A DNA stretch of 59,300 nucleotides from Methanobacteriota archaeon (GTDB lineage: Archaea; Thermoplasmatota; Thermoplasmata; Lutacidiplasmatales; UBA184), in the NCBI GenBank assembly GCA_013290045.1, contig JABCYU010000001.1:1-59300 (forward strand), read 5' to 3'. How positions within the stretch are numbered: position 1 is the first letter of the stretch; each line of letters starts with the position of its first letter. Of the stretch, positions 46,943 to 55,992 are shown piece by piece. The position numbers and the translations under genes are program-made. The notes under the pieces were generated by a model, which made no database searches, had not been told where the DNA came from, and saw only the letters and a list, made by a program, of their open reading frames with translations.

Positions 46943-49240
46943 TTGAGCGACGCCTGGCTGCTCGACATCACCGAGGACCGGCGGGGCCACGACGTCGTCC
47001 TCTGGCTGAAGGACGACGGCCCGGACGGCCGCGTGCGCCCGGTGCGGCGCCCGTTCCGGCCGCCGTTCCTCGTCGACGGACCGCGCGAGCACCTGAAGGC
47101 CATCGCGAAGCGGTTCACCGGCGCCCCGGACGTGGCGACGATCGAGTGGCGGACCGAGCGCCCGTCGATCTTCGATCGGCGGCCGCGGCGCCTGCTCTCG
47201 ATCACCCCGGAGCGGAACGACCGGCGCCGCCGCGTGGCGACGGCCGTCGACGCGTTCGGCGGGTACCACCGGGGGACGCTCTACGACGTCGACCTCGCGC
47301 CGCCCCAGCTCTACCACCTGGCGTTCGGCCTCTACCCGTTCGCCCCGGTGCGGGAAGAGGGGGAGCGGTACGTCGCGACCCTCCCGGCCGAGGCGATCGA
47401 CTACCCGTTGCCCCCACTGCGCGTCGCGCGGCTCGCCGCCGAGCTCGCCGGGGTGCGGCGCGGCGGGATTGTCCGCGGCGATCCCCCGCTCGCGGCGGTC
47501 GTCGTCGGCGACGCCCGCATCGAGGGAGCGGAGCCGGAACTGTTCGATGAAGTGATGGCCGAGCTCGCCCGCCAGGACCCCGACATCCTCCTCACCGACG
47601 ACGGCGACGGGTTCGATCTCCCGTGCCTGTACCGCCGTGCGGCGGCGCTGGGTCGATCGGAGGAGGAGTTCTTCCTCGGACGCGAACCCGTGTCGTTCCG
47701 GCCGGCGCGGCCGGCCCGGTCGTTCGCCACCTACGGCCAGGTCCTGCACCGCGAGGCGTCGTTCCCGCTCCCGGGGCGGTTCCACCTCGACCGGGAGAAC
47801 TCGTTCCTGTACGGCGACGCGGCGATCGACGGGCTCATCGACGCGGCGAGGCTCTCGCGCCTCTCGCTGCAGACGGTCGTGCGCCAGTCGCCGGGGACGT
47901 GCTTCACCGCCATGGAGATGGCCCACGCCCTCGAGGGAGGCGCCCACGTCCCGTTCCGCAAGAACCGGCCGGAGGAGTTCAAGTCGGCCCACCGGCTCGT
48001 CGAGGCCGACCGCGGTGGCGTGATCTTCCTCCCGCCGGTCGGGGTCCACGACCGGATCGACGAGTTCGATTTCGCGAGCCTGTACCCGCACATCATGGTG
48101 CGGCACAACCTGTCGACGGAGACGCTCAACTGCCGGTGCTGCCCGAAGAGCCCCGAGGTCGTCCCCGGCCTGGGCTACCGCTCCTGCGTCCGCCGGACGG
48201 GGCTCATCCCGACCACGTTGGAACCGCTCCTCGCCCGGCGGCTCGCCTACAAGGCGGCGATCAAGCGGCCCGGGACGCCCCCCGCCGAGGTCGAGCGGCT
48301 CAAACGCCGCGTGAAGATGCTCAAGTGGATCCTCGTCACCGCCTTCGGCTACCAGGGCTACCGCAACGCCCGGTTCGGCCGCATCGAGTGCCACGAGGCG
48401 ATCAACGCCTACGCCCGGGAGCTGATCGTCCGCCTCGTCCGCCACGCCGAGGAGCGGGGCTACCGGGTCGTCCACGGGATCGTCGACTCGCTCTGGCTCG
48501 CGCCCCGGGACCCGGCGAAGTGGCCGGACGCCGAGGCGTTCGCGCGGTCGGCGAGCGAGGAGTTCGACCTGCCGCTCGGCTACGAGGGCCGCTACCGCTG
48601 GATCGTCTTCCTGCCGTCGGTGACCGGGATCGGCGTGCCGAACCGGTACTACGGCCTCTACGAGAGCGGGGCGTTCAAGCTTCGGGGCGTCGGGTCGCGC
48701 CGGCACGACACGCCGCTCCTCCTGCGCCGGTTCGAGGGGGAGATCCTCGATATGATGAAGCGGGCGCCGGACGCGCCGGCGGTGCTCCGCCTCCTCCCGC
48801 GGCTCCTGGCGCGCACCGACCGGTTCGCCGAGCAGCTGAAAGAGCGGCGCTGGCCGGTCGAGGAGCTGCTCATCACCCACCGGCTGAGCCAGGAGGTGTC
48901 GGCGTACGTCACGTTCACCGACAGCGTCGCCGCGATGCGCCAGTTGGCCGACGCCGGCGTGACCCGGATGCCGGGCGAGTCGGTGCGGTTCGTCGTGCGC
49001 GACCGCCGATCGCGCTCGTGGCGCGACCGGGTCCGCGTCGCGGAACTGCTCGAACCGGACGACGACTACGACGTCGGGGCGTACCTGGAGCTGATGGCCC
49101 GCAGCGCCGAGACGCTCCTCGCGCCGCTCGGGGTGAAGCGCGCGGCGCTCCTCGAGCGGTGGGGGGTGGCGCCGGCACCGGAGCGCGACCGGTACCGCTC
49201 GGTCGAGGGCCGGGCGCAGCGGGCGCTCCCCGTCGCGTAG
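46943..49240 (+). CDS. polB: Family B DNA polymerase, PolB2-like, with degenerate exonuclease motifs and motif C
   Basis: 765 aa, TTG start with GGAGGG 4 nt upstream. Motif A is FDFASLYPHIM. Motif B is KMLKWILVTAFGYQGY. Motif C reads HGIVDS where YGDTDS is expected. The Exo I position reads RLAAEL. Exo II is partly retained (DGDGFDLPCLY). Confidence 0.85.
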   Translation: MSDAWLLDITEDRRGHDVVLWLKDDGPDGRVRPVRRPFRPPFLVDGPREHLKAIAKRFTGAPDVATIEWRTERPSIFDRRPRRLLSITPERNDRRRRVATAVDAFGGYHRGTLYDVDLAPPQLYHLAFGLYPFAPVREEGERYVATLPAEAIDYPLPPLRVARLAAELAGVRRGGIVRGDPPLAAVVVGDARIEGAEPELFDEVMAELARQDPDILLTDDGDGFDLPCLYRRAAALGRSEEEFFLGREPVSFRPARPARSFATYGQVLHREASFPLPGRFHLDRENSFLYGDAAIDGLIDAARLSRLSLQTVVRQSPGTCFTAMEMAHALEGGAHVPFRKNRPEEFKSAHRLVEADRGGVIFLPPVGVHDRIDEFDFASLYPHIMVRHNLSTETLNCRCCPKSPEVVPGLGYRSCVRRTGLIPTTLEPLLARRLAYKAAIKRPGTPPAEVERLKRRVKMLKWILVTAFGYQGYRNARFGRIECHEAINAYARELIVRLVRHAEERGYRVVHGIVDSLWLAPRDPAKWPDAEAFARSASEEFDLPLGYEGRYRWIVFLPSVTGIGVPNRYYGLYESGAFKLRGVGSRRHDTPLLLRRFEGEILDMMKRAPDAPAVLRLLPRLLARTDRFAEQLKERRWPVEELLITHRLSQEVSAYVTFTDSVAAMRQLADAGVTRMPGESVRFVVRDRRSRSWRDRVRVAELLEPDDDYDVGAYLELMARSAETLLAPLGVKRAALLERWGVAPAPERDRYRSVEGRAQRALPVA

Positions 49241-49371
49241 GCCGGGCGTCGGGCCCGACCGGCCGGACGGAGGGGCGGGGGCGGGGATCGCACGACGAAG
49301 AAACGGTCGAACGCCGAAGGCGGGCGCGAAATGGAGCGCGACCTTATGCGGGGAAAGCGTCTCGGCCGGGT

Positions 49372-50856
49372 GTGACCGGACGTTCGCGCCGGCCCAGCGT
49401 CCGGGACCGCGGCCGGGACCGGGAGCCGGCGACCCCCGCCGCCCGCCTCGCCGAGATCAAGGCGATGTCGGAGGAGGGGGGAACGGTCGACGTCGACCGC
49501 CTGGTCCGGTGGCTCTCCGACCCCGATCCGCTCGTCCGGCAGGGATCGGCGTGGGTCTTGGGAGCGAAGGTGGAGCGTCGCGGACGCGCGGCGCTGGAGG
49601 CCGCGCTCAACGACCCGTCGAACCGGGTCCGCGCGACGGCCGTCGAATCGCTGGGCGCGCTACGGGCCCCGGAGAGCCGCATCGCGCTCGAGCTCTCGCT
49701 CCGCGACCCGGACGCCCGGGTCCGATCCCAGGCGGCGTGGGCGGTCTGGGCGCTCGACGACAGTCGTTCCGGGGCCGCGATGCTGCCGCTTGCCGTCGAC
49801 CCCGACCCGGCGGTCCGCCAGGGGGCCGCGGCGGCGCTCGGGCGACTGCAGCCGAAGGGCGCGTACGAGCGGCTCACGATCCTATTGAGCGACGTCAACG
49901 ACCGCGTCCGACGCCAGGCGGTCTACGCGCTGGGCGGGTTCCGAAGCCCGCGGACCGCGTCGCTCGTTCGACCGATGCTCGCCGACCCCGCGCTGCGCGT
50001 CCGCATCGCGGCCGCCGGGATCCTCGGCCGGTGCCGCGACGTCGAGTCGGTGGGGCCGCTCCTCGACCGATTGCGCCACGACGACGCGTGGATGAAACCG
50101 GCGATCCTGGTCGCCCTCGGGCAGATCGGCGACCGCACGGCGCTCCCGGAGATCACCGCCGCGGTCGACGACCCGGCGGGATGGTCCCGGGTCTGCGCGC
50201 TGCACGCGCTTCGGGCGATGAAGGACCCGACCTCCCGAAACGCGGTCCGCCCGAAACTGCACGATCCCCTATGGTCGGTGCGCGGGGCCGCGGCCGAATG
50301 CCTCGGAGCCGTCGGCGGCCCGGACGACCTCGCGCTCCTCCTCGAGACCCTCGAGGACCTCCACCCGTGGCCCCGACGCGGGGCGATCTACGCGCTCGGG
50401 GCCCTCGGACTCACCGAGGCCGCGCCGAGGATCCGCGAGGAGCTGCGCCACACCGACGCCGAGATCCGTCTCGCGGCGGTCTGGGCGTTGGGCCGGCTCC
50501 GCGACGACGGGGCCCGCGAGGCGATCGCCGCGCTGCTCCGCCAATCGCACCCGGCCCGGGGCGAGCGCCCGACGCTCGCCGAGGGGGAGGGGGCGGTGCG
50601 GCTGCTCAGCGACGCCGAGGACCGTCTGTTCGATTCCGCCGTCCAGGCGCTCGGGCGGTTGAGCCAGGGCGAGTTCGATCCCGTCGTCGCCCGCGCCCTG
50701 CTCGAAGCCCGATCGCGCGTGCCGGACGACGAGCTCGAGCGGCTCGCCCGGCTCCCGACCCCCGAGCAATCCGTGAGCGGCACTCCTCCCACGCTCCGAC
50801 TGGTCTTCGAGACGGCCCTGCCGGCGGCGGTCGATGAGGACGAGCTGGGATGCTGA
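49372..50856 (+). CDS. HEAT (PBS-lyase-like) repeat protein
   Basis: About 11-12 repeats of the type DPDPLVRQGSAWVLG / DPSNRVRATAVESLG / DPALRVRIAAAGILG. The GTG at 49372 gives an Arg-rich N-terminus with G/C third positions; an alternative ATG lies at 49465. It is the in-frame 3' part of track ORF 47623..50856. Confidence 0.8.
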   Translation: MTGRSRRPSVRDRGRDREPATPAARLAEIKAMSEEGGTVDVDRLVRWLSDPDPLVRQGSAWVLGAKVERRGRAALEAALNDPSNRVRATAVESLGALRAPESRIALELSLRDPDARVRSQAAWAVWALDDSRSGAAMLPLAVDPDPAVRQGAAAALGRLQPKGAYERLTILLSDVNDRVRRQAVYALGGFRSPRTASLVRPMLADPALRVRIAAAGILGRCRDVESVGPLLDRLRHDDAWMKPAILVALGQIGDRTALPEITAAVDDPAGWSRVCALHALRAMKDPTSRNAVRPKLHDPLWSVRGAAAECLGAVGGPDDLALLLETLEDLHPWPRRGAIYALGALGLTEAAPRIREELRHTDAEIRLAAVWALGRLRDDGAREAIAALLRQSHPARGERPTLAEGEGAVRLLSDAEDRLFDSAVQALGRLSQGEFDPVVARALLEARSRVPDDELERLARLPTPEQSVSGTPPTLRLVFETALPAAVDEDELGC

Positions 50857-51788
50857 GGGACCTTCGGAAGGCCGAGGTCGGGCAGTTCAACACGCTCATC
50901 ACCCGCGAGTTCCCGCAGGAGGGAGCGCTGCTGGGGATCGATGTCGACGCCCAGCGTCGGATCCTGGCACGCGCGTTCCAGCCCCTGTTCCGATTCCTCC
51001 TGGGTTTCGCCCGTCTCGTTCGCCACCCGATCGTCCGGTTCTTCGTCGTGGAATCGGAGGGCCGGGTCGCCGCGACGGCCGTCCTGTCGTACGGCCGGCG
51101 GGCCGGCTACATCGGGGCGGTCAGCGTCGACCCGGCGTTCCGACGGCGGGGACTCGGGCGCCAGGTGATCGGGGGGTGCGCGGCGGACGCGAAGGCGACG
51201 GGCCGCGAGTTCGTCGTCCTCGACGTCATCCACGACAACGCCCCGGCGCAGGCGCTGTACCGATCGGTCGGCTACCGACCGCTGCGGACCGGGGCGTTCC
51301 TCCGCAAGGATCTCGCGGCGCGACCGGCCCCGCTCCCCCGACCGCCGGGGGTCCGGCCCCTCCGCCGTAGCGACCGCAAACCGTTGGCCGCGATCGCGGC
51401 CGCCGCCCTGCCCCCCGAGGTCGCGAGGATCCTGCCGGTCGAGCCGGGGTCGTTCACCCTGGCGCCGGTGATCGTCCGGTTCCTCGAGTCGGAGACGGAG
51501 GCGTGGGTGATAGATGACGGCCGCGGACCCGTGGCGTTCCTGCGGGGCACGGTCGGCCGGGCGATGCAATCCGGCAACCTGACCTCCCCCATCCTCGCCC
51601 CGGACCTGTCGACGGAGCGGTCGCTCGAGTTCCTCCGGTACGCCGAATCGTGGCTCGCCTCGAAAGGGGTCCCGAGGGCGGTCGTCGAGCAGTGGAGCGA
51701 CCCTCCGAGGGTCATCGACCTGCTCCGGTCGGGAGGGTGGGTCGAGGCGATCCCGATCGACACCCTCTACCTGCCGCTCCATGCGTGA
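50850..51788 (+). CDS. GNAT family N-acetyltransferase with an extra C-terminal domain
   Basis: 312 aa. The ATG overlaps the HEAT gene stop. Contains IGAVSVDPAFRRRGLGRQVIGGCAADAKATGREFVVLDVIHDNAPAQALYRSVGYRP. Confidence 0.8.
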   Translation: MLRDLRKAEVGQFNTLITREFPQEGALLGIDVDAQRRILARAFQPLFRFLLGFARLVRHPIVRFFVVESEGRVAATAVLSYGRRAGYIGAVSVDPAFRRRGLGRQVIGGCAADAKATGREFVVLDVIHDNAPAQALYRSVGYRPLRTGAFLRKDLAARPAPLPRPPGVRPLRRSDRKPLAAIAAAALPPEVARILPVEPGSFTLAPVIVRFLESETEAWVIDDGRGPVAFLRGTVGRAMQSGNLTSPILAPDLSTERSLEFLRYAESWLASKGVPRAVVEQWSDPPRVIDLLRSGGWVEAIPIDTLYLPLHA

Positions 51789-53094
51789 CCCGGCCGGTAC
51801 TACTCACATCGACGTCTACCTTTTTCCGGCGGCGATCGGAGGCGGCCGGGGCGACATCGACGAGGTGCTCGTCGCCGGTCGGGTCCTCGAGGGGGCGGGG
51901 GCGCGGGTGCGGATCCTCCGCCTCGGAGGGCGGTCGCTCCCCGGAGCGGCGGCCGATCTCGGGAGCTGGCCGCGGTTCTCCCGGGTCGGCCGGATCCGAT
52001 CTTCCCGAGGCTGGGCGATCACCGTGAGCCCGTCGTGGGGGGTGACCGCGGCCCCGCGCCGTCCCGGCCGGCTCGGCGGGGCCGGTCCGTGGGCCCCCGA
52101 ATCCGCGGAAGTGGAGCGGTGCTATGGGCCCGAGCGCACCGTTCATGTGAGCTTCGAGGAGTTCGCCCGAACCCTGTCGAGCCGGGCGCAGACGATCGAG
52201 CGCTACCGGGAGGGGGGCTGGACGCGCCCGCAGATCCGGCGGCTCACCCGGACCCGCCGGTTCCGGCGGGAGGTCGCCGAGTTCCGCGTCGCGTACCGGC
52301 GGTTTCGGGCGTTCGAGGTCCCGAACGTCCTGTCCGTGTTTCCCGGCTTCGTTCGGTCCGAAGTGTTCGGGCGCGAATTCCCCCGAGCCATCCAGACCGG
52401 CCCGCTCTGGCCGGGCCGATTCCCCCGGAGGATCGGTCGGATCCCCTCGAGGTGGCTCTGGTACGTCAATTCGCCTTCTGCCACCCGCCTCGTGCCGGGC
52501 CTCCGTACCGGACTCTCCGGGCCGGGTCCACCCGTCCGGGTCGGGATCCGGGGTCGTCTGGCGCCCCATCCCGGGATCTCGACCGAAGGTCCGTGGCGGA
52601 TCCTTCCGGCGATGAGCCCCCAACGCTGGGAGCGTCGGTTCGCCACAGCGGGGGTGCGGATCGTCACTGGGAGCCGCAGCCTCCTGGACGCACTCGAGGC
52701 TGGCGGCCCGTTCCTCTACTTCAACGGAGTGACGGGCGACGGCCGGAGGACGCGCCGGCACCGGCCGGAGAAGCTCCAGCAGCTGTTGCGCGTCTTCGCG
52801 GCGGCTGGCGGGCCGCCGGCGAGGGTGAGGGACCTCAGGTCGTTCGCCCTGGCTCGGCGGGTTCCCCAGATCGTCGGGGCGGCTCGCACCCCGGAGTGGC
52901 AGCTCGGGTTCCCTCGAACGGTCCGGGTCCAGGGGTACCTTCCGCCGTTCGACTCGGCCAACTCGTGGCTCGTCGATCTCCTCCGGCACGTCCGGAGGGC
53001 GGCGGCCGAGGGCGGTAGCGCCTCGAGTTTGGTAGCCGAGCTCCGGCGGGGTTCGCATGGCCGGCGCCCGTCCGGCTCCTCCGGGAAGGTCTAA
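51781..53094 (+). CDS. Arg-rich hypothetical protein; possible EarP/DUF2331-like GT-B glycosyltransferase homolog
   Basis: 437 aa. The ATG overlaps the GNAT stop, and third positions are G/C throughout. IDVYLFPAAIGGGRGDIDEV and WRILPAMSPQRWERRFATAGVRIVTGSRSLLDALEAGGPFLYFNG...HRPEKLQQLL resemble the EarP signature stretches as I remember them. The functional call is tentative. Confidence 0.6.
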   Translation: MRDPAGTTHIDVYLFPAAIGGGRGDIDEVLVAGRVLEGAGARVRILRLGGRSLPGAAADLGSWPRFSRVGRIRSSRGWAITVSPSWGVTAAPRRPGRLGGAGPWAPESAEVERCYGPERTVHVSFEEFARTLSSRAQTIERYREGGWTRPQIRRLTRTRRFRREVAEFRVAYRRFRAFEVPNVLSVFPGFVRSEVFGREFPRAIQTGPLWPGRFPRRIGRIPSRWLWYVNSPSATRLVPGLRTGLSGPGPPVRVGIRGRLAPHPGISTEGPWRILPAMSPQRWERRFATAGVRIVTGSRSLLDALEAGGPFLYFNGVTGDGRRTRRHRPEKLQQLLRVFAAAGGPPARVRDLRSFALARRVPQIVGAARTPEWQLGFPRTVRVQGYLPPFDSANSWLVDLLRHVRRAAAEGGSASSLVAELRRGSHGRRPSGSSGKV

Positions 53095-53118
53095 ACCCCG
53101 GCTCCCCCTTCCCGAGGC

Positions 53119-54228
53119 ATGGCCCCCGAGGAGGCGGCCCCTTCTGCGGTCGCCGAAGTCCTCCTCGGCCCGGCGCTCCGCCTACGTCGCGGGGAGAACG
53201 TCATCATCGAGAGCTGGAGCCACACGCTTCCCTACGCCTCCGCCTGCGTCGTCGAGGCGCGGCGTATCGGCGCCCACCCGATGCTCCTGCTCGAGGAAGA
53301 GGCGGCGTTCTGGGAGAGCCTCGACCGCGTTCCCTCGACGTCGTGGGTGAGCGGCGTCGGAGCGCACGAGTGGGCGGCGCTCGGAAAGACCCACGCCTAC
53401 GTCTTCTTCCCTGGCCCCTCGGACCGGCCCCGGCTCCGGGCGCTGCCCAAATCGAGGAGCCGGGACGTCGTGACATCGAACGACGAGTGGTTCCGCCGCG
53501 CCCGCTCCGCGAAGCTGCGGGCGGTGCGGAGCGTGCTCGGGTACGCCTCGGACCCGCAGGCGGCCCACTGGGGGGTCTCCGGGGCGGCGTGGCGGAGCGC
53601 CCTCGCGCAGGCCACCGTCGGCGTCGACTACCGGGTGCTGCAGCAGGAGGCGCAGCGCGCCGCGGCGAAGATCCAATCGGGGTCGACGTTGCGGATCACC
53701 GCGTCGAACGGCACGGACGTGAGCGTGAAGCTCCGGCACCGTCGTCCCTCGGTCGACGACGGGGTCGTCTCCCCGCAGGACGTGCGCGACGGCGAGGTCA
53801 TGACCGTCTCGCCTCCCGGGACCGTCGTCGTCGCCATCGACGAGAAGTCCGCGGATGGGGTGGCGATCGCCAACCGGCCGAGCTTCCTGAGGTCGGGAAG
53901 GGTCGAGGGCGGCCAGTGGGAGATGAAGGCGGGCCGGCTGACGAACTTCTGGTACACGGATGGACAGGGGGCGTTCGAGGAGTCGTACCGGGTCGCCGGG
54001 AAGGGCCGCGACGTCGTCGGGATGTTCTCCCTCGGCCTCAACCCCGCGCTCACCCCGGGGGTCCCCCAGGTCGAGGATCAGGAGGCGGGCGCCGTGACCC
54101 TGGCGATCGGCGGCAACCAGGCTCAGGGAGGCACGAACCGATCGCCGTTCATCTCGTGGATCGTCCTGGGCGAGGCGACCGTCGCCGTCGACGGCAAGCC
54201 GCTGTGCGACCGCGGAAAGCTCCTGTAG
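53119..54228 (+). CDS. M29 (aminopeptidase T/AmpS)-like metallopeptidase
   Basis: 369 aa with GENVIIESWSHTLPYASACVVEARRIGAHPMLLLEEE...ITASNGTDVSVKL...AVTLAIGGNQAQGGTN. The family call is made from memory and the sequence looks divergent. Confidence 0.7.
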   Translation: MAPEEAAPSAVAEVLLGPALRLRRGENVIIESWSHTLPYASACVVEARRIGAHPMLLLEEEAAFWESLDRVPSTSWVSGVGAHEWAALGKTHAYVFFPGPSDRPRLRALPKSRSRDVVTSNDEWFRRARSAKLRAVRSVLGYASDPQAAHWGVSGAAWRSALAQATVGVDYRVLQQEAQRAAAKIQSGSTLRITASNGTDVSVKLRHRRPSVDDGVVSPQDVRDGEVMTVSPPGTVVVAIDEKSADGVAIANRPSFLRSGRVEGGQWEMKAGRLTNFWYTDGQGAFEESYRVAGKGRDVVGMFSLGLNPALTPGVPQVEDQEAGAVTLAIGGNQAQGGTNRSPFISWIVLGEATVAVDGKPLCDRGKLL

Positions 54229-54241
54229 TCGCGCTCCCCCC

Positions 54242-54856
54242 GTGAACGTGGACGAGACGACCGCGTCGGTCGAGCGGGCGTTCGCGAAGCCGCTCCCTCG
54301 CCGGTTCTTCGACCGGCCGACCCGTCGGGTGGCGCGCGAGCTTCTCGGGAAAACGATCGTTCGGCGATCGGGAGCGCGATGGCGGGCGGCGCGGCTGGTC
54401 GAGGTCGAAGCCTACCTGGCAGGGGACCCGGCCAGTCACGCGTTCCGAGGTCCGACCCCGCGCAACGCGTCGATGTTCGGGGCGCCCGGCACGCTCTACG
54501 TCTTCCGGATCCACCAGGTCGTCTGCGCGAACGTGGTGACGCAACGGGGGGAGGCGGTCCTCCTTCGGGCGGGCTCGCTGCCGGAGGGGAGTTCAGGAAA
54601 CCCTTCGGGCCCGGGGCGCCTGTGTCGGTATCTCGGGATCACCCGGTCGGACGACGGAATCGACCTCGTCCGGTCTCAGACGAGGCTATTGGACGGTCCA
54701 CCGCCGACCGAACCCGTCCGGACCGCGCCCCGGGTCGGGATCTCCCGCGCGAAGGAGCGGCGCCTCCGATACCTGCTATGGGGGAATCCGTGGGTCTCTC
54801 GTCCCCGGCCCTGGGGTCGCCGCCCGCCGGCTCAGCGGAGCTTGGCCCAGGCGTAA
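54242..54856 (+). CDS. mpg: DNA-3-methyladenine glycosylase (AAG/MPG family)
   Basis: 204 aa with a GTG start, containing [13 protein letters not shown]...[49 protein letters not shown]. Confidence 0.85.
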
Positions 54857-54993
54857 CGCCGCAGGTGGGCGGTGTCGCCGAACCCGCAGGAAGCGCACAC
54901 GCGCTTCTGGCGGTGGTACGAGTGCTTCCCGCAGCGCCGGCAGCGGAAGTGGACGATCTTCCCGCCACGCATCGACGGGGTTCCTTTGGTCAT
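54832..54993 (-). CDS. rpl37e: 50S ribosomal protein L37e
   Basis: Not in the ORF track. Hand translation gives [53 protein letters not shown], with a CxxC...CxxC zinc ribbon. It overlaps the 3' end of the convergent mpg gene by 25 nt. Confidence 0.9.
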
Positions 54994-55011
54994 AGGTGTC
55001 CTCCGACCCGA

Positions 55012-55224
55012 TTACGGCGAGATATAAACGATGGAGTCGCCGCGGAGCAGGGTGAGGCCCTGGCGGGGCGTGACGACCTCCTGGACGACCTCTTCGGCAG
55101 AAGAGAGGACCAGGTTGAGGTGCTGGTCGTAGGCGTCGAGCACCCCGCGGAACGAACGGCCGCCCTTCATCTCCACGAGGACCCGCTTGTGCAGGCTCTG
55201 CTGGAGGAGGTCGAGAGGCTTCAT
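55012..55224 (-). CDS. Sm-like archaeal protein (LSm/SmAP)
   Basis: 70 aa: LHKRVLVEMKGGRSFRGVLDAYDQHLNLVLSSAEEV...LLRGDSIVYISP, showing the Sm1/Sm2 motifs. This is the classical LSm-L37e gene pair. Confidence 0.9.
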   Translation of the reverse strand: MKPLDLLQQSLHKRVLVEMKGGRSFRGVLDAYDQHLNLVLSSAEEVVQEVVTPRQGLTLLRGDSIVYISP

Positions 55225-55257
55225 CGGCGGAGAGGTCGGGGAGAAAAGCTGGTCTTC

Positions 55258-55992
55258 TTAACGGTTGCCGAGGCGGGCCGGTCGGGACCCCGTCCGAACG
55301 GCGGCGAGGGCGCGCACGACCTCCGACGCCTCGCGGCGACGAGCGTTCCCGGTCGCCGGAGATCTCCGAACCGTTTCGAGGATCCGGCGGACGACGGCGG
55401 GGATCGACCCATCGGCGGGGACGACGGCCACCCGATCCGGAGCGGCCGCCGATATCGTCTCCTTCCAACATCGCCGCTCCCAGGCCCCGACGACCGCGTG
55501 ACGGGCGGCGAGCCTCGGCGGGTGGGTCTCGGGGCTCCCCGACGCCCGGGACGCGACGACGACCGGGTCGGCGTCGAGGTAGAGCGTCAGGTCCGGGATT
55601 CCCCAGGCACCACGAGAGAGCCGCTCCGATACGATTCCGATCACGTCAGAGCTCACGTCCCACCGGATCCCCATGGTCTTGGCGATCCCGAGGCTATAGG
55701 TCAACGGCCCGAGGAAGCCGGTGTCGAGGTAGAGGAGCTCGCCGGATCTCCGGAGTCGGGTCGCCTCGGCGAACCGGGCGAGATCCAGCCGGACCAGCTC
55801 GAGCTCGATTCCCCGAAGCTCCTCCGGGCTGCGGTACTCCAGCGACGGCGGGTGCCCGACGGAGTCGTACGCCTCGGCGAGACCGCCGCGGCCCGATTCC
55901 CGGACCAGCCCCCGGAGGAGGGTGGTCTTCCCCACCCCGCTCGGGCCCTCGAGGGCGATCCAAGGGAGGTCGTCCCGGCGCGACTCCGCCAC
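55258..55992 (-). CDS. P-loop NTPase, nucleoside/nucleotide kinase-like
   Basis: 244 aa with WIALEGPSGVGKTTLLRGL...LYLDTGF...LTLYLDADP. Substrate unknown. Confidence 0.7.
   Translation of the reverse strand: MAESRRDDLPWIALEGPSGVGKTTLLRGLVRESGRGGLAEAYDSVGHPPSLEYRSPEELRGIELELVRLDLARFAEATRLRRSGELLYLDTGFLGPLTYSLGIAKTMGIRWDVSSDVIGIVSERLSRGAWGIPDLTLYLDADPVVVASRASGSPETHPPRLAARHAVVGAWERRCWKETISAAAPDRVAVVPADGSIPAVVRRILETVRRSPATGNARRREASEVVRALAAVRTGSRPARLGNR

Follow-up and report, generated by a model that had tools for sequence, protein, structure and literature searches.

EarP (CAZy family GT104; Pfam PF10093/DUF2331) is a glycosyltransferase of about 380-440 amino acids (aa) with the GT-B fold, and it is regarded as a bacterial enzyme with a single substrate, Arg32 of elongation factor P (EF-P). 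One Asp base suffices in many inverting GT-B enzymes that act on hydroxyls (GT1, GT28). In EarP, each of the invariant residues D13, D17 and E273 is essential, the diphosphate is bound by R271, and the thymine sits in a cage of F191, F252 and F258; single alanine substitutions of D13, E273 or R271 each abolish or strongly impair activity, and the acidic triad has been proposed to serve specifically in guanidinium activation (Krafczyk et al. 2017, PMC5615199). We found no description of archaeal EarP relatives in the searchable literature. The present study concerns a stretch of 59,300 nucleotides (nt) of contig JABCYU010000001.1 (the window; about 66-75% GC) from a metagenome-assembled genome of a Thermoplasmata archaeon (2.23 Mb, 183 contigs, 89.5% complete), and within it three consecutive genes, the last of which encodes a protein of 437 aa with an EarP-like domain:

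49372..50856, + strand: HEAT-repeat protein gene (494 aa, isoelectric point (pI) 6.7; Pfam HEAT_2, E = 2.4e-71, 7 stretches; putative scaffold)
50850..51788, + strand: tandem (double) GNAT acetyltransferase gene (312 aa, pI 10.6; Pfam Acetyltransf_1, E = 3.4e-15)
51781..53094, + strand: gene for a GT-B fold protein with an EarP-like donor domain (437 aa, pI 11.9, 16.7% Arg)

We read this trio, with slightly less than even confidence, as a lineage-specific operon of a single GTDB family that encodes a HEAT scaffold, a tandem GNAT and an enzyme of a GT-B family that is archaeal, related to EarP and rebuilt in its acceptor half, and whose function we infer from the comparisons below.

Searches of Pfam, NCBIfam and PDB sequences with the 437-aa protein returned nothing significant and no match to the PF10093 (EarP) model, and a 38-sequence profile of its family likewise gave nothing significant against these three databases. 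A database search retrieved 442 relatives (43-59% identity among the 119 matches listed), of which the named ones are all called 'hypothetical protein', while every named organism is a Thermoplasmata archaeon. An exhaustive hidden Markov model search of 1.84 billion representatives yielded just 88 members of the family. Among these 88 are a tier of divergent members (~30% identity) and two remote low-GC singletons (P0218, P0219) that lie on contigs of ~1.5 kb or less and have no gene context. Two apparent GNAT-GT-B fusions (P0165, P0172) were rejected as gene-calling artefacts, their middles being garbled and out of frame. An AlphaFold2 model built from the family alignment (predicted local distance difference test score (pLDDT) 89.7, predicted template modelling score 0.90) consists of alternating strand and helix elements in two halves, with C-terminal helices at residues 393-425. 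Of the 89 PDB matches that Foldseek returned at E <= 1e-3, all those listed have the GT-B fold. The top match was EarP with bound dTDP-rhamnose (5xvr_A, E = 3.6e-6), other EarP entries ranking 5, 12, 19, 22 and 25. The GT-B superfamily is defined by two Rossmann-like beta/alpha/beta domains, a cleft between them and a C-terminal helix that crosses back, and the predicted structure belongs to it. The E-values of GT1 enzymes (UGT71G1 and other plant UGTs, CalG1, OleD, GtfA/B), of MurG (GT28) and of SenB are close to those of EarP, and MshA was also among the matches. The structure therefore establishes 'GT-B' and not 'EarP'.

To relate the family to EarP by sequence, we used a reference set of 86 bacterial EarP genes (Pseudomonas, Shewanella, Bordetella, Ralstonia and relatives) retrieved via a back-translated DNYGDIGV-WR pattern; one retrieved EarP reproduces the P. 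putida residue numbering of the literature. In profile-profile comparisons with hhalign, a narrow alignment of the 437-aa family gave only 22.7% against EarP (P = 9e-4), whereas a broad alignment to which divergent members had been added gave 81-88% (P = 3.5e-6 to 1.2e-5) over ~340 collinear columns, the best full-length comparison reaching 87.6% (P = 3.5e-6, score 54). The signal thus needed the divergent genera, the narrow alignment alone scoring weakly. Reversed alignments gave P = 0.6-0.8, 17 block shuffles scored 15-31 as against 54 for the real alignment, and size-matched EarP subsamples gave 83-89%. As a control with another GT-B family, MurG (29 Gammaproteobacteria sequences) gave 2.1%; it was used in place of a Glyco_tran_28_C control from related genomes, which was dropped because there were too few sequences and none in the GTDB family of the source genome (f1). 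A Pfam scan of 40 members matched EarP as the sole family hit by more than one member (4/40), all below threshold, the best at 17.7 bits (E = 0.002; curated threshold 25 bits). In member P0188 the sub-threshold match could be located: residues 326-370, in the C-domain block, correspond to positions 241-285 of the EarP profile. No other glycosyltransferase family, GT1 and GT28 included, was among the Pfam matches of the 40 members, no sequence-profile signal links the family to GT1 or MurG, and a PF10093 search of the entire genome gave no match. These data support EarP as the nearest known family by sequence profile. The EarP-like identity proposed in a first-pass annotation, made from the sequence alone, thus holds as to the GT-B fold and as to a remote relationship closer than that to other GT-B families, but not as to a formal assignment: EarP tops the Foldseek matches with GT1 nearly tied, while the window protein has no Pfam match and no member reaches the profile threshold.

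The relationship is not evenly distributed over the protein. The C-domain alone (residues 216-437) gave 91.5% against EarP (P = 8.8e-7), and the N-domain alone (residues 1-215) gave 0.5% (P = 0.13), as compared to 3.8% against MurG (P = 0.011). It follows from this domain split that the EarP likeness resides in the donor-binding half. Two conserved regions are relevant here:

51808..51867, + strand: N-terminal beta1-loop-alpha1 motif GGGxGD(I/V)(E/D)E, with G20, G21, G22, G24 and D25 invariant in 38 sequences
52594..52788, + strand: C-domain block ...W283...VTGSR(296-299)...PFLYFNG...HRPEK(327-331), the EarP-like donor-binding region

The first-pass annotation had quoted IDVYLFPAAIGGGRGDIDEV (residues 10-29) and WRILPAM...HRPEKLQQLL (residues 272-336) as two EarP signatures. 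Both strings are present, and the second agrees with the C-domain result, but the first is a general GT-B feature, a Gly-loop followed by Asp, and not an EarP-specific one. This loop resembles the GSRGD motif of the Gtf enzymes. In the C-terminal half, the family has the block V-x-G-x-x-S...A...G-x-P...K-L-x-x-L in common with EarP, and the pattern G-x-x-T/S-x-x-E-A-x-x-x-G-x-P in common with GT1 and MurG. Invariant in the 38 sequences are GGGxGD25, S124xEEFART, E140RxREGG, T296-G-S-R299, LYFNG and H327RPEK331, of which the elements SxEEFART and ERxREGG belong to large conserved inserts in the archaeal N-domain that set it apart from EarP. As judged from these profiles, the C-terminal nucleotide-sugar-binding domain shows itself to be a distant homologue of EarP, and the N-terminal acceptor domain to have diverged beyond recognition.

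The remote hhalign alignment also allowed us to map EarP residues (P. putida numbering) onto the 437-aa protein:

EarP D13: G21, an invariant Gly
EarP D17: D25, an invariant Asp
EarP E273: S298, an invariant Ser
EarP R271: T296
EarP D274: R299 (Gln in the divergent tier)
EarP S275: S300
EarP F191: Y228
EarP F258: W283, invariant
EarP K301: K331

EarP Y193 corresponds to N or S, and F252 and Q255 fall on variable positions. Only one of the three catalytic acids is therefore kept (D17, as D25). The loss of acids had been correctly noted from the sequence, where the VVD and GED of EarP were seen to be replaced; hhalign places these at G21 and at S298/R299. In the dTDP-rhamnose pocket, as mapped by this remote alignment, F191, F258 and S275 are kept in kind and R271 and D274 are replaced. 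Three basic residues that are newly conserved here, R299, R328 and K331, lie around the position expected for the diphosphate. The invariant D25 is a candidate general base. Since a single Asp can suffice and the EarP triad is tied to guanidinium chemistry, the conservation pattern points to an active enzyme with an acceptor other than arginine.

The gene content of the source genome bears on the acceptor. EF-P is absent, and the only homologue of it is aIF5A (G000 contig C42), in which the hypusine Lys is intact (...SKPGKHGEAK...). Two full-length deoxyhypusine synthase (PF01916) genes are present (C13:8172-9035 and C102:1651-2532, loci L183 and L184; 324 and 279 bits), one of which may be a paralogue of other function, for instance a homospermidine-synthase-like enzyme. 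An EarP-style arginine target is therefore unlikely, and aIF5A was rejected as such a target on account of its canonical GKHG lysine and the two synthase genes. On the donor side, a pathway of the dTDP-rhamnose type, for which the first-pass annotation had suggested looking, was found elsewhere in the genome: contig C29 has a cluster of RmlD (213 bits), RmlC (55 bits) and an RmlB-like/RmlD_sub_bind-type epimerase/dehydratase. Many archaea possess this pathway, which is hence unspecific, so that dTDP-rhamnose is a plausible donor on genomic grounds, though not one that the rml genes single out. Taken together, our data support remote homology of the donor domain to EarP, whereas membership of EarP/GT104 fails on the profile threshold, on the catalytic triad and on the acceptor, there being, in this archaeal host, no EF-P with a loop-tip Arg and none of the linkage to efp that is usual for the EarP gene.

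For the GNAT protein, Pfam Acetyltransf_1 covers residues 57-142 only, but the AlphaFold2 model (pLDDT 88.8) contains two GNAT folds. Its top Foldseek matches are tandem GNATs (VipF at 8.8e-16, 2wpw, MAB_4324 and the glucosamine N-acetyltransferase 5kf1; to 1e-13), and over the wider set, which includes a histidine acetyltransferase and MshD (2c27/1ozp), the E-values range from 1e-16 to 1e-11. The acetyl-CoA loop (Q/R-x-x-G-x-G/A) is present as a conserved RRRGLG at residues 98-103 of the N-terminal GNAT and is lacking in the C-terminal GNAT-like domain. The protein thus resembles Legionella VipF, the mycothiol synthase MshD and the Clostridium glucosamine N-acetyltransferase in being a two-GNAT chain of ~300 aa with an acetyl-CoA motif in one domain; it differs from them in that identity to any solved member is 10-19% and that the N-terminal domain keeps the loop here. 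The pairing of a GNAT with a large protein of alpha-helical repeats, a possible scaffold or targeting subunit, recalls the eukaryotic Nat complexes (Naa10-Naa15), as an analogy and not as a claim of homology between the HEAT repeats and the Naa15 TPR; moreover, those complexes have no GT-B counterpart. We know of no archaeal deoxyhypusine hydroxylase, and this identity was for that reason considered for the HEAT protein. Deoxyhypusine hydroxylase is a HEAT-repeat di-iron enzyme with four His-Glu metal-binding motifs, whereas the repeats found here (VRQGSAWVLG, VRATAVESLG, VRSQAAWAVW etc.) have no His-Glu pairs, and the candidate was rejected. A second copy of the HEAT C-terminal region was observed on other contigs of several same-genus genomes (G095:C7, G011:C40, G219:C1, G128:C17), which by sequence is a HEAT paralogue.

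Downstream, two further genes follow on the same strand, the second being the final one of the string:

53119..54228, + strand: M29/NicX-like protein gene (369 aa; 24 nt past the GT-B gene; Pfam Peptidase_M29, E = 1.6e-6)
54242..54856, + strand: 3-methyladenine DNA glycosylase gene (Mpg/AAG type; Pfam Pur_DNA_glyco, E = 3.2e-45; TIGR00567 above cut-off)

The three genes of the trio share one narrow phyletic range, a single GTDB family. As a rule they lie side by side, their frames overlapping or almost touching. The GT-B gene was found in 54 of 59 f1 genomes (7 genera), and the remaining 341 genomes of the class yielded only two weak fragments and nothing of full length; a divergent-tier query matched 8 of 9 f1 genomes and none of 391 other genomes of the phylum. 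The C-terminal 103 aa of the HEAT protein were detected in 20/23 genomes of the family as compared to 0/177 elsewhere in the class, and the C-terminal domain of the GNAT in 30/37 as compared to one weak match in 263 genomes elsewhere. The order HEAT-GNAT-GT-B was seen in all 29 sampled loci, including those of g17 and g19, two genera with a GT-B identity of only 30%. The M29-like gene comes next in 25 of the 29 and is missing or displaced in the others; it scores 27.7 bits against the Peptidase_M29 threshold of 27, has no PDB sequence match and has 2-3 paralogues elsewhere in related genomes, and is a frequent but dispensable fourth gene. The GT-B gene has HEAT, GNAT, M29-like and Mpg genes as its neighbours, and no linkage to aIF5A. 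The co-occurrence of the trio that the first-pass annotation had proposed to check was found in most related genomes; in two genera (g15 and g18), however, the GT-B gene lies apart, and the association is strong but separable. In g18, HEAT, GNAT and Mpg are adjacent in locus L170, HEAT and GNAT are adjacent in L171, and the GT-B and M29-like genes are elsewhere. In g15, the GT-B gene stands beside long open reading frames (ORFs) taken as MutS/MutL from size and N-terminal sequence alone, and the GNAT is elsewhere. Mpg still adjoins HEAT-GNAT where the GT-B and M29-like genes lie elsewhere, and the latter pair may have been inserted later into, or excised from, an older HEAT-GNAT-Mpg string. 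In two relatives the string shows other changes. Between GT-B and Mpg at L003:7360-10071, the M29-like gene gives way to a gene of the COX1 family (haem-copper oxidase subunit I; 903 aa) and a 75-aa ORF. At L002:5054-5999 two short gene calls (185 and 135 aa) stand where the GNAT would be expected; neither has a Pfam hit or a tblastn match to the window GNAT, and they may represent a frameshifted or replaced gene.

On the reading that we favour, the operon would be transcribed from its own promoter with a leaderless GTG start at 49372, usually with the M29-like and Mpg genes after the trio. The EarP-like C-domain would bind an NDP-sugar, for which dTDP-rhamnose is available in the genome as a possible donor, with the aromatic residues Y228 and W283 in place of EarP F191 and F258, and with R299, R328 and K331 taking over the neutralisation of the diphosphate from the lost R271. 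The invariant D25 would act as the single general base of an inverting transfer. The acceptor would be other than arginine, most likely a hydroxyl or amine; in view of the conserved pI near 11.5, it may be carried by a partner that is acidic or polyanionic. Being the sole non-basic member (pI 6.7), the HEAT protein would hold the two basic enzymes together, and the GNAT would acetylate the same substrate or a transferred amino sugar. That such a three-protein complex modifies a protein or nucleic-acid-associated target with glycosyl (and acetyl) groups in a hitherto undescribed manner is a rather doubtful extension of this reading, and the 'protein-modification module' of the first-pass annotation is, at this point, what we infer and not what we observe.

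Several observations weigh against an operon with an EarP-related enzyme. In the Foldseek comparison EarP (3.6e-6) is not separated from GT1 (6e-6). Two of the three EarP catalytic acids and R271 are replaced, which would be compatible with an inactive protein or with a different donor. The high pI of the family (median 11.5 as compared to 5.3 for EarP) is partly driven by GC content (~72%), as ~9% of the ORFs in the window have a pI of 11 or more. Physical linkage is not obligatory, as is evident from the separate GT-B gene in g15 and g18, and since all occurrences fall in one clade, the shared range and the synteny amount to approximately one evolutionary observation.

A small-molecule pathway, in which the GT-B enzyme and the tandem GNAT would together make an N-acetylated glycoside (a mycothiol-like thiol, a compatible solute or a glycolipid head group), appears unlikely to us. 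It would follow the logic of MshA (a GT-B enzyme) and MshD (a tandem GNAT), with the M29-like protein as an amidohydrolase and the HEAT protein as accessory or unrelated. Indeed, the GNAT matches include a clavulanate pathway enzyme (2wpw), glucosamine N-acetyltransferase, histidine acetyltransferase and MshD, natural-product GT1 enzymes are among the GT-B matches, as are SenB and MshA, the EarP-type acceptor domain is not conserved, and the M29-like gene comes next in most loci. However, by sequence the donor domain is closest to a protein glycosyltransferase, and the top GNAT match, VipF, is a protein acetyltransferase. Furthermore, the extreme basicity of the GT-B (pI 11.5) and GNAT (pI 10.6) proteins is unusual for such enzymes, the coupled 494-aa HEAT scaffold would have no role, and the cluster can do without the M29-like gene.

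It is equally improbable that the three genes are mere neighbours, functionally uncoupled and with an order handed down within a single family of compact genomes, even though all occurrences are in a single GTDB family, the GT-B gene stands apart in two genera in which all genes persist, and the flanking Mpg, LSM and Pterin_bind genes are also syntenic in relatives. What speaks against this are, besides the identical narrow ranges of the three genes and the order kept in 29/29 loci, also across genera with 30% GT-B identity, the junctions themselves. Direct reading of the sequence bears out the three ORFs and both start/stop overlaps that the first-pass annotation had listed: the GNAT ATG (50850-50852) lies within ...GGA TGC TGA, with the HEAT stop TGA at 50854-50856 (a 7-nt overlap), and the GT-B ATG (51781-51783) lies within ...CAT GCG TGA, with the GNAT stop TGA at 51786-51788 (an 8-nt overlap). 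In relatives, most called junctions have overlaps or gaps of at most ~15 nt, the HEAT-GNAT gap of 77 nt in L001 being larger.

A dead pseudo-glycosyltransferase that serves as a structural, nucleotide-sensing or nucleic-acid-binding partner of HEAT-GNAT, as might be suggested by the replacement of D13, E273 and R271 by G21, S298 and T296, by the pI of 11.9 and by the DNA-repair genes nearby, is very unlikely, because the cleft motifs GD25, G297-S298-R299 and H327-R328-P329-x-K331 are invariant in 38 sequences at 45-59% identity, an active-site-like pattern, a single Asp or His base suffices in many inverting GT-B enzymes, and a viral fold search showed no special likeness to DNA glucosyltransferases. 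The related idea of a DNA glucosyltransferase, prompted by the pI of 11.9 and the DNA-repair neighbours, was likewise left unsupported by viral and PDB fold searches, which returned generic GT-B matches with the DNA alpha-glucosyltransferase only at rank 34.

The neighbourhood of the trio includes DNA-repair genes, with the PolB2 operon ahead of it and Mpg behind it. It had been described as a unit directly downstream of the PolB gene; the overlaps and the proximity agree with this, but the PolB2 gene ends at 49240 and the trio begins 131 nt further downstream, where a likely promoter is found:

49341..49349, + strand: TATA-like box ACCTTATGC of the ACCTTAT(G/C)C type, ~22 nt upstream of the HEAT GTG start

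This box is among the very few A/T-containing stretches of a region with 73% GC, and a matching box, ACCTTATCC, is located ~25 nt upstream of a GTG in the homologous locus L001. It fits an archaeal TATA box and is likely the promoter of a leaderless transcript, so that the trio, near PolB2 as it is, is probably a separate transcription unit. The GTG at 49372 is supported as the HEAT start by this box and by the helix ...RLAEIKA upstream of the internal ATG at 49456, which is kept in homologues. A scan for sigma-70 promoters and terminators found none, but such a scan is inapplicable to archaea. In the gap past Mpg, GATATAAA at 55019-55026 is the sole strongly A/T-rich octamer in 49100-55300, and it may be a promoter for the downstream minus-strand genes. 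The neighbours of PolB2 that make up the trio go unmentioned in the PolB2 mutasome paper (PMC11791011), which reports DUF72 to be enriched near polB2; in relatives we observed a DUF72 gene close to the PolB2/HEAT region (L001:1254-2024, L003:1-41).

The value of these findings is limited by the narrow taxonomic range of the family, which is that of uncultured soil Thermoplasmata. Within this range, ~450 database proteins, all 'hypothetical', could be annotated at least as 'GT-B fold, EarP-related', and together with its partners, the tandem GNAT and the HEAT scaffold, the family offers a concrete three-protein system to reconstitute. With the donor domain of EarP retained, the acceptor domain rebuilt and the catalytic set altered, such an archaeal family would illustrate how a lineage of protein glycosyltransferases comes to be re-targeted. 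If the rather doubtful reading of a modifying three-protein complex is correct, the 437-aa protein would represent the first descendant of the EarP lineage in archaea, and one that relies on single-Asp acceptor chemistry instead of arginine activation.

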